The notes under the pieces are model-generated. The model was not told the DNA's origin. It did no database searches and saw only the letters and a program-made list of their open reading frames with translations. Source: Candidatus Woesearchaeota archaeon (GTDB lineage Archaea; Nanobdellota; Nanobdellia; Woesearchaeales; WAPY01). From it: a DNA stretch of 64,000 nt. Positions 40,851 to 56,015 of the stretch are shown here, one piece after another. The position numbers were made by a program, and so were the translations under genes. Position 1 is the first letter of the stretch. The number at the start of each line of letters is the position of its first letter. Where the stretch lies: the NCBI GenBank assembly GCA_049700835.1, contig JBNAUL010000002.1, positions 334,275 through 398,274 on the forward strand. The letters run 5' to 3'.

Positions 40851-40950
40851 NNNNNNNNNNNNNNNNNNNNNNNNNNNNNNNNNNNNNNNNNNNNNNNNNN
40901 NNNNNNNNNNNNNNNNNNNNNNNNNNNNNNNNNNNNNNNNNNNNNNNNNN
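40851..40950. other. Assembly gap (100 N)
   Basis: Run of N flanked by poly-A. Confidence 1.
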
Positions 40951-44546: not shown

Positions 44547-44646
44547 NNNNNNNNNNNNNNNNNNNNNNNNNNNNNNNNNNNNNNNNNNNNNNNNNNNNNN
44601 NNNNNNNNNNNNNNNNNNNNNNNNNNNNNNNNNNNNNNNNNNNNNN
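44547..44646. other. Assembly gap (100 N)
   Basis: Run of N. Confidence 1.
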
Positions 44647-51995: not shown

Positions 51996-52244
51996 TTATT
52001 CTTGCTTTCTGTTGTTTAACTTTTCTTTTTTCCCTTCTTTTGAAACCAAGTTCTCTTTTTTCTCTTTTGCTCTCTGCTTTGCAAATTCCTGAGTCCACTT
52101 TAGTTCTGAGGGTTTTCTGCCGAGTTTCAGGTAATTCTTAAAACACTTGCTTGAGCACAGATGGATGAGAGCACCTGTCTTTTTTACAAATGTCATTCCG
52201 CTTCCTTCCTTTATAGTTCTACCGCAAAAATTGCATTTTGTCAT
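51996..52244 (-). CDS. rpl24e: 50S ribosomal protein L24e
   Basis: CNFCG..I..G.G..FV..G...LCSSKC...LKWT. Confidence 0.96.
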   Translation of the reverse strand: MTKCNFCGRTIKEGSGMTFVKKTGALIHLCSSKCFKNYLKLGRKPSELKWTQEFAKQRAKEKKENLVSKEGKKEKLNNRKQE

Positions 52245-52254
52245 TCTAAACCAC

Positions 52255-52506
52255 CTAACCCTTTCTCTTGTGCATCAAGTCCTTTGCTTCAATTTCTGTT
52301 TCCCTCAACATCAATATGTCTCCTGTCTTTACAGGACCCATTACATTTCTCCTCAGCAATTTATTGGCGTCAGGACCCTCAAGTATTCTGCATCTGACTT
52401 GCGTTACCTCGCCGCTCATCCCTGTTCTTCCAAGGATTTCCTCTACTCTTGCAGCCCAAGCAGGAGTAAAAACCGCATTTTCAACGCCTTTATCCTTTTT
52501 TGTCAT
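52255..52506 (-). CDS. rps28e: 30S ribosomal protein S28e
   Basis: [41 protein letters not shown]. Confidence 0.96.
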
Positions 52507-52573
52507 TTTAACGAACACCTGGTTGTATAATTTTAAAATTTTGCATTTTGTGCTTGTACTTATCTGCTGTTCT

Positions 52574-52957
52574 TTATTGTTGCTCTTCCTTGGCTTTCTC
52601 CTCGGACTTTTCCTCTCCGCTTTCGCGCAACAACAATTTTCTTGAAAGCTCTTCTATCTGTTTTTTAGCATCCCCTTCCTTAATTATTGCAACGCTTGCA
52701 GTTCCAACAGACAAACCTGCTGCCACCCCAAGTTCTTCCTTGCTAGGAACTTCTATTAAAGGGATGTTCTTTTCCTTTGCAAGCAAAGGCAAGTGCATCA
52801 CAATCTCCTTCGGAGAGACATCCTTCGCTATCACTACCAATTTTGCTTCTCCTTTTTCAACAGCTTTTGTAACCTCGTTCGTTCCTTTTCTTATCTTGCC
52901 TGTTGTTCTCGCTATCTCAATGCATTCCAAAGCTTTATCAATTAGTTCTTCTACCAT
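52574..52957 (-). CDS. rpl7ae: 50S ribosomal protein L7Ae
   Basis: [39 protein letters not shown] 52957 after AGGTGA. Confidence 0.97.
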
Positions 52958-53002
52958 TTTAATCACCTTTTCCAGAGCTTACAAGAGCTAGAAACAAAAC
53001 CT

Positions 53003-53025
53003 CTTTCGAGCTTCGCTCTCATAAG
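53003..53025 (-). promoter_or_regulatory. Candidate kink-turn-like element in the rpl7ae 5' leader
   Basis: CUU-AU-GA-GAGC-GAA-GCUC-GA-AAG downstream of TATA TTTATAAA (53058-53065). Confidence 0.4.
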
Positions 53026-53114
53026 TCACAGGTTTGATTCTGTGGCAATCTCTATTGTTTATAAATCTTTCTCTTTTTTGGTTCTGTTAATTTATTGTTG
53101 ATGACATAAACATT

Positions 53115-53298
53115 GCAATCTTATTTTAATCATTCCTTGCACAGATTAACAGTTTGAAATTTAGTTGACTTTTGTATATTTCCCAAAACCATTTATAATT
53201 TCAATACGCTTTATCACAGTATCATTAATATGCCATTAACTAGCGATTGGAATTAAGTTATCTACAAATTCCTTAGCTAGAGCAGAATATTCCATAAC
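53115..53298 (-). mobile_element. Decayed IS6-family (DDE) transposase fragment
   Basis: Frame-stitched translation VMEYSALAKEFVDNLIPIAS*WHINDTVIK/NYKWFWEI/STKF..CKE*LK*DC follows the IS6 pattern W..KYS....VD.L.P....WH.DE..IK...W.W..D..TRF....S.ER. Confidence 0.5.
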
Positions 53299-53390
53299 AT
53301 ATGCGATTTAACGAAGTCGTGCGTAGCAGGATTTGAGTGTAGCAGGTGTAACCGAACAAAACCGTTAAAAACCGTTAAATCGCTATTCAT
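53292..53390 (-). repeat. attC-like imperfect inverted repeat
   Basis: Perfect 11-bp inverted repeat GCGATTTAACG (53303-53313) / CGTTAAATCGC (53373-53383); on the minus strand it is followed by ATAT-GTTATGG. Confidence 0.5.
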
Positions 53391-53522
53391 TTCTCCGAAC
53401 TTAGTGAGAATTGAGTTTTAGTGAAACTTTGCGAAGCCAAAAAACTTAAAGTTCAGAAAGAGCAAATGCTATCGAGCGAACAAAATGAGCAATCAGGCAG
53501 AAAAGTCGAGGGCAAAATTAAA

Positions 53523-54456
53523 TTATTTTAGTTCATAAACATTATCCAGCAAATCAGGTTTTGGAATATCAGAAAGTTCTCCCTTTCCACCTTTTTTTAG
53601 CCATTTAATATGCCACAAATATAATAATCCAACTGACATTTGTTCTAAATATATTCCTAATGTCCAGATAATTCCCTCATAGATTATTACACCAGTCCAG
53701 AATAAAGATGAAAAAGCAAAGATGAAAAAGCAACACCTGATTTATCTATATAAAAGATAATTATCAATGGAACAGACATAAAAAGAGATGTAATTCCTGT
53801 TGAGGTATATGTAGTGAGGAATTGCATAGGATGTCTTTTGATCACTTCAAGAGACCTCTTAAATGCTGAGAAAGGACCCTTATTTTCCCATGCTATTGCA
53901 GGCAAGGTTAAGAAAATATACATTCTTACCAATTTTTCAAACATCCTCAGACCTAACTTTAACCATGAGAATGGTCCGGAATTAGCACCGCCCAAAGTTA
54001 AAGCTGCGTCTCTTGCAGAAGGTTCTGGTCTTGAACTTTTACTATCTTTCTCTTTGCTTGTTAAAACACTTATTATTAACATAACAAACCATATTATCGC
54101 CTAAATAAGTGCAACAATAATGACTTTTAGTAAATCAACAACAAGTGATTCTTTAAGAGCTTTGAAAAAAGATATTTTCTCTCCAGACTCAATCTGTTGC
54201 ATAAATTCAAGCATCATGATATTTGCAATACAAATTATCATCGTGATTAGGAAAATTACTCCAAAGATTATCAACAAACTTAAACCTAAATCATTTGGAA
54301 AAGTAAAATAATATCTCAGATACAGAATTAAACTTGCGATTAATGCCCAAGCAAAAAAGATTGGAATTAAGAAGATTGGTTTCTTAAACAAGAATCTAAA
54401 TGAGTCAACAAATAATTTCCATCCTTCGCCAATACTTTTAAAATCTATATATTCAT
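53523..54456 (-). pseudogene. Inactivated polytopic membrane protein gene (three lesions)
   Basis: Extra AT after ATG 54456; in-frame TAG at 54101-54103 in ALI*AIIW; 14-bp tandem duplication 53704-53731. Repairing all three gives one ORF ending ...KPDLLDNVYELK* at 53523. Confidence 0.8.
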
Positions 54457-54694
54457 TCTATTCTTAAAGCATCTATATAAATATTTCGAATTTGAGTTGT
54501 TCTATAAATAATAATTTATCCTTTCTGAATACTCAATAGAGACAACGGGCTTCATCTCACAGATAAATCTATTGGTATTCGCCTATGATTTTATAAAAAC
54601 CAAATTCAACTGAACATTATATTTCAACTGAATATTTTATTCTGAAAATTAATTCTGAAAAGATTTTTATAGTATAAGGTTTTAGTATTAGAGC

Positions 54695-55384
54695 ATGAAA
54701 AACCCGATTGCCTTTTCAAAGAAAGAAGGGTTTAAAATTCCAAAACACATAGGAGTAGCGTTTGAAGAGGTTTCAGAGACAAAAGAGGACTGCGAGTTAA
54801 AAAAAGAACTTGTCATAAAGATGCTCAATCAGCAGCAGTTGTTAAAGATACCTATGCTTAGCATTCTTCTACTTTCTCAGGAAGCACTCTCAAATGAAAA
54901 AACATTTGAAGAAGAACTAAGAAACCTTGAAGAACTTCTTGAAACTATTCTAAAAAAGGCGCAGGAGCAAAAGATAAGAATAAGCGTCTTTGGGAATTGG
55001 CACAGGCTTCCTGATTCAACCTCAGAGCTGATAAAGATGGTAGTTAAGGAAACAATGGAATACAACGATTTCTTCCTAAATCTTTGCATAAACTACGATT
55101 CAAAGGAGGAAATAGTTGATTCATTTAAATTAATTATGAAGAGAATAATGAGCGGAAGGCTCAGTATCGATATGCTCGACAAGAGTACAATAAAGGAAAA
55201 CCTCTATTCTTCACACATCATAGAACCTGAACTCATAATAAAAACAGGATTGCCTAAGATACCAAATTTCTTCGTGTGGGATTTTGTCGGGGCAATTTTA
55301 TACTTTACAAAGACGCATTGGAGAAATTTTAGAAAGAAGGATTTTTTGAGCGCAATAAAATTCTACAATGCTTACAAAAAATAA
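54695..55384 (+). CDS. UppS/cis-prenyltransferase family protein with degenerate catalytic motifs
   Basis: IPKHIGV, IRISVFGNW..LP, FLNLCINYDSKEEIVD, PELIIKTG, NFFVWD, LYFT..HW..F; lacks DGNRR and the C-terminal RxG. Confidence 0.8.
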   Translation: MKNPIAFSKKEGFKIPKHIGVAFEEVSETKEDCELKKELVIKMLNQQQLLKIPMLSILLLSQEALSNEKTFEEELRNLEELLETILKKAQEQKIRISVFGNWHRLPDSTSELIKMVVKETMEYNDFFLNLCINYDSKEEIVDSFKLIMKRIMSGRLSIDMLDKSTIKENLYSSHIIEPELIIKTGLPKIPNFFVWDFVGAILYFTKTHWRNFRKKDFLSAIKFYNAYKK

Positions 55385-55544
55385 AAAAACTTTTTATTCC
55401 TTTTGGTGTAGCAAAAAAACATTTTAAACTCCTGCATCATATGCAAGTATAATTTAAATAATAGTAGAAAACATAGAAAATAAAAAAGAAAATAAGAACA
55501 ATCAAAAATAATCAAAAAAAACAATCAAAAAGGCAAGAACAGTA

Positions 55545-56015
55545 ATGCAAAAGATGAGAAATCTCTTTGAAGTGGACTTTGAAGTGTTATTTGTTGAAAA
55601 GAAGAAAAAGAAGAAAAGGGCTCAGATAAGCATGGAATTTTTGATAATAATGGGCTTTGCAATGGCTACAACAATTCCACTGCTCTTAACATACTATGAG
55701 TATTCAAGGAACGCCAACATTAGAATAAAAACAGAACAAGTATACAAAATTGCAAGGGAAATCGCTGATAGTGCAGAATCTGTCTATTACATAGGTGCTC
55801 CTTCAAAGACAACGATGAGGGTTTATATCCCTGAAGGCGTTGACAGCATTGAAATAAACCAAAGAAAAATTGTTTTCAAAGTCAAATTCTATGGAAACAT
55901 AAGTGAGATTTCATATTCTTCAAATGTCAATCTCTCAGGAACAATTAGCAGCCATCAGGGCATACATAACATAGAAATAGAGGCAAAAGAGGACTATGTT
56001 GAGATAACAGGATAA
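55545..56015 (+). CDS. Class III signal peptide (pilin-like) protein
   Basis: KKRA|QISMEFLIIMGFAM (QxSxE type); start uncertain. Confidence 0.8.
   Translation: MQKMRNLFEVDFEVLFVEKKKKKKRAQISMEFLIIMGFAMATTIPLLLTYYEYSRNANIRIKTEQVYKIAREIADSAESVYYIGAPSKTTMRVYIPEGVDSIEINQRKIVFKVKFYGNISEISYSSNVNLSGTISSHQGIHNIEIEAKEDYVEITG

Follow-up and report, generated by a model that had tools for sequence, protein, structure and literature searches.

In the genome of a Candidatus Woesearchaeota archaeon (GCA_049700835.1, handled here as G000), a solitary membrane-protein gene lies between rpl7ae and uppS and is followed by a comparatively G+C-rich tail that ends in a hairpin. The question which this locus raises is whether gene and tail arrived together as a mobile cassette and, if so, what kind of system put them there. 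The stretch of DNA that was analysed, referred to throughout as the window, comprises 64,000 nucleotides (nt) of contig JBNAUL010000002.1 (positions 334,275 to 398,274 of the forward strand), and positions of the locus are given within it. An earlier note, made from the letters alone, had proposed a cassette of an integron-like or other hairpin recombination system. In kind this proposal stands, as the hairpin belongs to a repeat family which in relatives forms arrays beside a recombinase, but it does not stand for the IntI/attC pair that the word integron usually implies. We put at roughly 80% the probability that the locus represents an orphaned, decaying cassette of an integron-like gene-capture system belonging to this class of small archaea.

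A family of structured repeats

Searches with BLAST and nhmmer found three copies of the element in this genome, the one in the window and two on contig 1 (copies A and B), the latter lying about 450 nt apart on either side of a SET-domain gene, upstream of porG. More copies are present in two other genera of the family, one of them directly 3' of an unrelated open reading frame (ORF) of 140 amino acids (aa); in the window, in the genome G001 and at copy B the element immediately follows a gene that has the same orientation. The earlier note had named a single copy, or copies lying elsewhere than 3' of diverse ORFs, as grounds for giving up its reading, and neither is what was found.

A covariance model, R1, was built from a MAFFT alignment of five copies and scores the three copies of this genome at 117.6–138.2 bits. 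It matches 70 of the 151 genomes sampled from the order (E<=0.01; the tally includes one unpublished genome, G136, not otherwise used). In a phylum-wide sample of 151 high-quality genomes it matches 61 (E<=1e-4), ten of these in other orders of the class, and altogether other genomes yielded over 150 matches with covariation. The elements measure about 130–200 nt and share a consensus of TAACA, a stem, a variable hairpin, CCCAAAT, a small hairpin, ACTTC, the return of the stem, a bulge of 2–3 nt and finally TGTTA-nnnn-CA, with a variable 5' hairpin (helix 1) preceding the outer box AACA.

The structure is better conserved than chance pairing would allow. Among 26 copies from five arrays, 91.7% of the cells were paired, against 69.0% in shuffled alignments (0/500 as high) and 31–49% when the partners were slid, and 25 of the 30 pairs changed on both sides. 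The 11-bp inner stem (helix 3) was paired in 95.4% of cells, ten of its eleven pairs covaried, and G-U occurred in 2 of some 286 cells; pairing across helices 3 and 5 reached 95–99% with G-U almost nil, and helix 1 contains many G-U pairs. The outer AACA/TGTT pairs were invariant in 25–26 of the 26 copies. RNAalifold, run independently on the five MAFFT-aligned copies, returned the same stems with compensatory changes. The scarcity of wobble pairs in stems that covary speaks for a constraint at the level of DNA and points to a structure formed by the DNA itself.

Seen against the family, several details of the window copy read differently from how they were first described. The ATTTAAC/GTTAAAT arms, which had been taken for the core boxes, are the variable and covarying inner stem, the invariant part being the outer AACA/TGTT; the outer left AAT, entered at the time as a caveat, is a mutated copy of the AAC which the family keeps; and the boundary, which had been drawn exactly at GTT, has to be moved, since conservation in the family extends 8–9 nt beyond it as TGTTA-nnnn-CA(AT). 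What had been called an unusually long attC leader is made up in part of a second hairpin that belongs to the element and in part of sequence private to the cassette. The description of the tail itself was confirmed: it is non-coding, about 225 nt long, reaches to about 53295, has 34–41% G+C vs 22–28% in the neighbouring spacers, and ends in AAT-AGCGATTTAACG ... CTTCGTTAAATCGC-ATA-TGTT with perfect 11-bp arms. By comparison with its relatives the window element is eroding, with AAC changed to AAT, a 10-nt internal duplication gained and the CA(AT) after TGTTA lost, and the outer stem is absent from its fold. Copy A, its right arm lost, fails to fold, and copy B seems intact.

Arrays, primary site and recombinase in relatives

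In relatives the elements are organised in same-strand arrays with one to three ORFs between successive copies, examples being the six copies in contig 2 of G070 and the five in contig 2 of G011. Counted from the table of five arrays, 14 of the ORFs between elements share the strand of the elements and 17 run the other way, and cassette genes found on either strand need promoters of their own. A Pfam match was obtained for 19 of 30 array ORFs; the cargo includes an AbiEii-like ATPase, a MazE-like antitoxin, a nucleotidyltransferase, SurE and LemA, as well as TrmB regulators, dehydrogenases, a prenyltransferase and a SET-domain protein. One cassette of the G011 array (L041:8265-8951) encodes a protein of the undecaprenyl-diphosphate-synthase family, the same family as the uppS product beside the window cassette.

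In at least 21 genomes a gene with the tyrosine recombinase domain PF00589 lies on the same contig as the elements, at most 8 kb upstream of the first and on the opposite strand, and G143 adds one more; the count of 21 was made by comparing tables of places by eye and is a lower bound because a further 115 PF00589 matches were not listed. The tally of PF00589 matches includes the unpublished genomes G136 and G116. Among the matches listed, no recombinase and element within 10 kb of each other on one contig were seen in any other arrangement. Many other recombinase genes lie 0.3–2 kb from a contig end, as would be expected if the repeats break assemblies.

Some 52–152 nt upstream of the recombinase start, and reading toward the array, there is a short site, here called the primary site, which usually consists of a 9–11-bp inverted repeat with a loop of 8–13 nt followed by TAAT-nnn-TGTTA-nnnn-CAAT; by its layout it is in effect a miniature of the 3' half of the element. 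Of 21 array-linked recombinase genes 15 have this site, and of 16 other xerA-like genes none.

The recombinases themselves form a distinct group. In a maximum-likelihood tree of 35 proteins, which omits a pseudogene and a fragment of 204 aa, 18 of the 20 array-linked proteins grouped in a single clade (100/100 support) that excludes all 15 others. For four array-linked proteins the XerA equivalog model NF040815 was the best match, at 197–222 bits, three of them falling below its cut-off of 220, as against 258–282 bits for five members of the main non-array clade; two members of a third clade scored 207 and 232. Both kinds of gene were fetched from eight genomes, in six of which the array-type recombinase is accompanied by a member of the main XerA clade, the partner in G044 and G066 belonging to the third clade. 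The array-linked recombinases are 252–288 aa long and match the integron-integrase model TIGR02249 in two pieces (positions about 1–185 and 235–315) with 183–204 bits for a cut-off of 265, the IntI-specific insert of the integron-integrase models being absent. Among solved structures, the G011 recombinase is nearest to that of P. abyssi XerA (4a8e, matched in one stretch) and not to IntI4 (2a3v, matched in two). In this sample the array-linked recombinase is a dedicated paralogue of XerA, separate from true XerA.

A platform that is integron-like in function, that is, a divergent recombinase with a same-strand array leading away from a primary site, is therefore found in relatives and not in this genome. 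In G089, a one-contig genome, the array-linked recombinase gene (L061; contig 1, 217280-217750) contains a TAA stop and an intact XerA gene lies 35 kb away; this locus is another decaying platform.

Boundaries of cassettes

Two genomes of one genus, G011 and G143, display the boundary between platform and cassettes: homology extends over both recombinase gene and primary site and ends right after TGTTA-nnnn-CAAT, the cassettes beyond it being unrelated. The start and the end of a cassette are furthermore linked by an inverted repeat private to that cassette. When the 60 nt that follow GTT in one element were compared with 120 nt about the beginning of the next element, the scores of 25 of 28 cassettes reached or exceeded the 95th percentile for 756 non-cognate pairs (median 13.75 vs 7.0), and the private repeat often begins 8 nt past GTT. 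In a circular cassette such arms would lengthen the base of the element hairpin. One cassette is shared across families: the SET-domain gene between copies A and B on contig 1 of this genome has the same layout in G077, of another family, where the encoded protein is 54% identical, and in both genomes the gene is antisense to the elements and the clamp arms, although different, are still complementary.

For the window cassette a comparable but weak pair of arms (54514-54529 with 53452-53467) falls within the range of non-cognate scores and is not above chance, and it is entered in Table 1 as a candidate only.

The cassette in this genome

The window copy lies away from the sole primary-type site of the genome, a single pattern match on the minus strand of contig 1 at 179558, and the secondary place of insertion which the earlier note had supposed is thereby upheld. 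After the primary-type site there is no R1-type cassette, only degenerate element-like stretches below R1 detection, and the sequence downstream of it can be aligned with the sequence that lies beyond an R1 element in G005. The archaeal RNase P RNA gene (RF00373, 120 bits) is encoded about 3 kb from this site (contig 1, 176315-176612, minus strand; L070:316-613).

The rpl7ae-uppS junction, which had been put forward for comparison among relatives, contains in G003 (same genus) a gene for a trypsin-like peptidase and no element. Homology is limited to the two genes and their promoters, and turns patchy at 53080..53105, where a 26-nt word containing TGTTA is found. As the junction is not conserved in G002, only G003 was usable, and by this comparison the insertion in the window is lineage-specific. 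The 26-nt word is shared with the region upstream of copy B; the places on contig 1 considered together with it lie near 363484 (minus strand) and 362581 (plus strand).

The gene of the cassette, which had been described as an intact membrane-protein gene with its own promoter, is a pseudogene. The promoter-like motif exists and resembles the A/T-rich promoter words before rpl7ae and uppS, and the gene ends where it had been said to end, but the frame of ATG 54456 closes after three codons and the long membrane-protein frame has no ATG. With an in-frame TAG and a frameshift added to the missing start, the uninterrupted frame of a functional coding gene is not found here; downstream of the 14-nt duplication that shifts the frame, the sequence aligns to the C-terminus of homologues. 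Intact homologues, 303–309 aa in length and 62% identical, occur in 2 of 150 other genomes of the order and match no Pfam family at its cut-off. All three lesioned stretches are contained with zero differences in contigs of an independent sequencing run from another study, X2 (records 9, 10 and 12; the duplication in record 9 and the TAG in record 10), and assembly error can therefore be dismissed as their source. The contigs of X2 leave 53159-53698 and 53852-54022 uncovered, low-depth holes that carry no weight.

Table 1. Features of the cassette locus between rpl7ae and uppS (window positions)
Feature	Position	Strand	Remarks
26-nt word containing TGTTA, GGTTCTGTTAAY TTATTGTTGAT	53080..53105	+	rpl7ae-side edge of the variable region; near-identical word upstream of copy B, contig 1
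Spacer, origin unassigned	53106..53288	n/a	No ORF >=40 aa
Recombination-site-like element, 5' hairpin and large core hairpin	53289..53448	-	Covariance model R1, 138.2 bits
Outer right box TGTTA	53295..53299	-	At or beside the putative crossover region; usual CA(AT) 4 nt further absent
Inner 11-bp stem, right arm CGTTAAATCGC	53303..53313	-	Perfect inverted repeat with left arm
Conserved unpaired core motifs	53313..53337	-	CTCAAAT (family CCCAAAT) 53337-53331; ACTTC 53317-53313
10-nt tandem duplication, TTTAACGGTT twice, inside the element	53360..53379	-	Not in the other four aligned copies
Inner 11-bp stem, left arm GCGATTTAACG	53373..53383	-	Perfect inverted repeat with right arm
Outer left box, AATA (family near-invariant AACA)	53384..53387	-	Helix 2; C-G in 25/26 copies
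Cassette-private 3' spacer, stop codon to modelled element	53449..53520	-	Alignable with G001 copy; contains arm 53452-53467 of weak inverted repeat
Pseudogene of polytopic membrane protein, no curated family	53523..54457	-	Stop TAA 53525-53523
14-nt tandem duplication, frameshift	53704..53731	n/a	100% identical copies
In-frame TAG (TGG>TAG)	54101..54103	-	Trp at this position in both intact homologues
BRE/TATA-like motif GAAATATTTATATA, predicted promoter of the cassette gene	54474..54487	-	17 nt before ATG 54456-54454; read from sequence
Candidate left arm of private inverted repeat	54514..54529	-	13/16 complementary to 53452-53467

Neighbouring features

Beyond the GTT a remnant of a transposase had been suspected. 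None of the nine stop-free frames over 53079-53300 matches Pfam at E<=10, and tblastn and blastn of this stretch against its own genome returned only promoter-like A/T words and one 23-nt match; the suggestion does not hold. The spacer beside the L7Ae gene gave a weak C/D-box-like Rfam match with a UGAUGA box (53092-53162, plus strand; SCARNA18, 20 bits, E 0.54). In the spacer before uppS there is an 18-nt tandem repeat of two copies, 89% alike (54605-54640, plus strand). The 5' leader of rpl7ae (52967-53045, minus strand) is near-identical in a genome of the same genus and contains a hairpin-like stretch, AAACCTGTGAC...GAAAGAGGTTT, which we take to be a possible candidate for an L7Ae-binding autoregulatory element. 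A tRNA scan found a single tRNA, far from the locus.

Weighing the evidence

A number of observations weigh against the reading of this locus as a cassette of an integron-like system, and they are brought together here. No product of recombination was seen, whether a circle, an empty site with an exact joint or a junction at the level of reads, and runs X1 and X2 gave no joints over the window. No tyrosine recombinase (PF00589) was found in this genome when the search proposed in the earlier note was made, and we claim no activity here; at E<=0.001 the domain was found in none of the six genomes of the family (G000-G005), which are 84–100% complete. In G003 the primary-type site is degenerate and has no adjoining recombinase gene. 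It follows that the window cassette is probably an immobile relic, with some doubt left for this genome by one of its 18 scaffold gaps of 100 N, which begins 143 nt from the primary-type site, where the recombinase gene would be expected. To these points must be added that G138 and G140, both array-linked, have recombinases without the primary site that fall in the third clade, that the intact homologues of the membrane-protein gene (in G017 and G067) have no adjoining element, and that the pair counts come from a 26-copy alignment which had been fitted to R1 and so is biased toward the structure. Folded singly as DNA, finally, the window copy reached a z of -1.35, with 20 of 200 shuffles equally good; copy B gave -2.83 and copy A +0.85, values that are not decisive. 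First-order Markov (Markov-1) simulations of the 1.7-kb region also produced, in 294 of 2000 cases, a perfect 11-bp inverted repeat whose loop was no longer than 100 nt, and since the window hairpin is not significant by itself, its reality rests on the related copies.

Two side observations belong with these results. Two of the 18 gaps lie in the window, at about 40851-40950 and 44547-44646, and runs of N inflate inverted-repeat counts made over its whole length. The family genomes G000-G005 also seem to be without XerA itself, which bears on how their chromosome dimers are resolved.

Of the other explanations, the one that fares best, though we regard it as improbable, is that the element is a structured RNA, such as a 3' untranslated region, a terminator or a family of small RNA genes, and that its linkage to a recombinase is incidental. 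A G+C-rich, structured sequence in an A+T-rich genome would agree with this, as would the place of the element directly 3' of a same-strand gene at three loci and the richness of helix 1 in G-U pairs. However, helices 3 and 5 are almost without G-U, neighbouring ORFs lie on either strand, and no Rfam family was matched over 53289-53520 at E<=10 (a scan of 52000-56000 gave five weak, unrelated matches only). Among the sequencing runs listed as containing the stretch there was none of RNA. An RNA would moreover leave the arrays, the dedicated recombinase, the miniature site and the private inverted repeats unexplained.

Slightly less credit is given to non-autonomous transposons, either miniature inverted-repeat transposable elements (MITEs) or palindromic elements derived from IS200/IS605, moved by a transposase. 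Hairpin ends are typical of single-strand transposons, and on contig 1 the block formed by copy B, the SET gene and copy A has inverted 12-mers, GGTTCTGTTAAC, at its borders, with a direct 8-mer, CAACACGC, flanking each of them in the manner of terminal inverted repeats with a target duplication. An exact 11-mer of these border words occurs five times in the genome, three of them at these borders. The words may be transposon-like ends, or they may equally be the halves of a palindromic secondary site split by insertion. Searches of the genome found neither a TnpB (PF07282) nor a Y1 (PF01797) domain, whilst the controls matched; the copies within one genome diverge strongly yet keep their structure, unlike those of a recent MITE burst; and ordered same-strand arrays beside a single recombinase clade are not accounted for by transposition of this kind.

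A classical integron cassette, with attC and an IntI-type integrase as in bacterial and archaeal integrons, is the explanation nearest to the original proposal and is rated a shade lower still. The likenesses are considerable. In both systems a tyrosine recombinase gene is transcribed away from the array with a short primary site beside it, the cassette ends in an imperfect palindrome whose structure is kept over its sequence, with outer boxes AAC...GTT and related inner boxes, the cargo is diverse and mostly accessory, toxin-antitoxin-like genes included, and orphan sites occur outside arrays. In the element the outer boxes are nearly invariant and the inner stem covaries. Nevertheless, the recombinase of these archaea is a paralogue of XerA without the additional domain around patch III that characterises the IntI clade, as its low scores with the integron-integrase model and its best solved relative indicate. 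The sites measure 130–200 nt, carry an extra 5' hairpin and the invariant unpaired motifs CCCAAAT and ACTTC, and are conserved 8–9 nt past GTT. Their cassettes often hold two or three genes on either strand, with private inverted repeats, and so are neither co-oriented nor, to judge by the TATA-like motif of the window gene, promoterless and dependent on a promoter Pc beside attI; and recombination is here something which we infer from anatomy. In its length, its extra hairpin, its paired 'spacer' and its conserved loop motifs the element differs from attC as commonly described, and such unpaired motifs are not known from attC.

The frequencies of the two systems differ as well: the element family is present in 46% of the genomes sampled from the order, as opposed to about 1% of archaeal genomes (75/6718) for integrons according to Ghaly et al. 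(2022; PMC9668308). A term search of its data file shows a few genomes of this phylum with two to six attC sites and no IntI, which speaks in favour of the classical reading. The CCCAAAT motif does not occur in the data zip of that paper, the PDF supplement with attC structures and attI figures, which may be relevant, lying outside this search. A CALIN is defined in the same source as at least two attC sites within 4 kb and no integrase; the single copy of the window does not have this spacing, and the two-copy locus on contig 1 would satisfy the spacing rule.

That the hairpin arose by chance in a decaying intergenic region and has no function, as the 15% of simulated regions with such a repeat and the modest z of its fold might suggest, can for practical purposes be set aside, being refuted by the family evidence, namely the R1 scores of the three copies and the matches elsewhere.

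Relation to Xer systems and other arrays

The recombinase is closest to XerA both by sequence and by solved structure, and a single recombinase with a site next to its own gene recalls the XerA/dif system. In Sulfolobales dif adjoins the gene of its recombinase, and archaeal dif is described as a single stretch of 28 bp in which a 6-bp spacer separates two 11-bp arms (Cortez et al. 2010, PMC2958812). In contrast, the sites considered here are many, long, structured and arranged in arrays, and the linked recombinase forms a separate clade. A recombinase at or above the NF040815 cut-off together with a single 28-bp site therefore does not describe this system, dif being compared here by its described layout. 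An attempt to read the primary site as an 11-6-11 site of the dif type was abandoned, as the arms are not convincingly palindromic across loci.

Sites of the pdif type are plain 28-bp dif-like duplexes acted on by the housekeeping XerC/D. The system described here has instead long hairpin sites and a recombinase that is a dedicated paralogue. It nevertheless shares with the Xer-dependent modules and IMEX elements of bacteria that gene modules are bounded by sites for a recombinase of the Xer family and hold genes in either orientation. The pdif modules on Acinetobacter plasmids (10.1101/2024.04.09.588662) are an example of such modules. A second system is closer in the size of its sites. The Vibrio cholerae repeats are attC sites of more than 100 nt which are typical of the species and form the cassette ends of large sedentary arrays; they depend on IntI and have the canonical attC box layout, and in both respects they differ from the elements of these archaea.

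A model and its meaning

In the model that we favour, a cassette consists of one to three genes on either strand, with promoters of their own, and ends in a structured DNA site of about 130–200 nt. In relatives, arrays start at the primary site next to the divergent dedicated recombinase, which would exchange strands at or just 3' of the TGTTA of the folded (or cruciform) element, with either the primary site or a secondary TGTTA-containing site as partner, so that circular cassettes could be inserted or excised in the fashion of integrons. The repeat family and its covarying structure, the arrays, their linkage to a distinct clade of recombinases, the border between platform and cassettes and the decay are matters of observation, whereas we infer recombination itself, the folded single strand as its substrate and the direction of events. 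In the window, one such cassette lies at a secondary place between rpl7ae and uppS and, with no recombinase detected in this family of genomes, its gene and its site are eroding.

Taken more broadly, and held with distinctly less assurance than the reading of the locus itself although we consider it on balance probable, these observations would describe a second kind of integron, built from a dedicated XerA paralogue and long folded sites and present in some 40–46% of the phylum and order genomes sampled. Its cassettes could also be dropped into the core genome at a secondary TGTTA site, as in the window between uppS and the gene of a ribosomal protein, and would there outlive the recombinase and then decay. 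Our literature searches found no description of cassette arrays of the XerA type, the figures and PDF supplements of PMC9668308 and PMC2958812 lying outside their cover.

If recombination is real, the capture of genes as cassettes is not bound to the IntI lineage, and a recombinase of the Xer type has been recruited together with a folded site of different build. Such a system would provide a new pair of recombinase and site for work on the mechanism of recombination on structured DNA, as well as a model with which annotators could spot cassette ends that integron finders may miss. It would also be common in a group of archaea that ranks among the poorest in genes and the most dependent on hosts, offering these organisms a route for the turnover of accessory genes, of which the window locus would represent the end stage, an orphan cassette after the loss of its recombinase.

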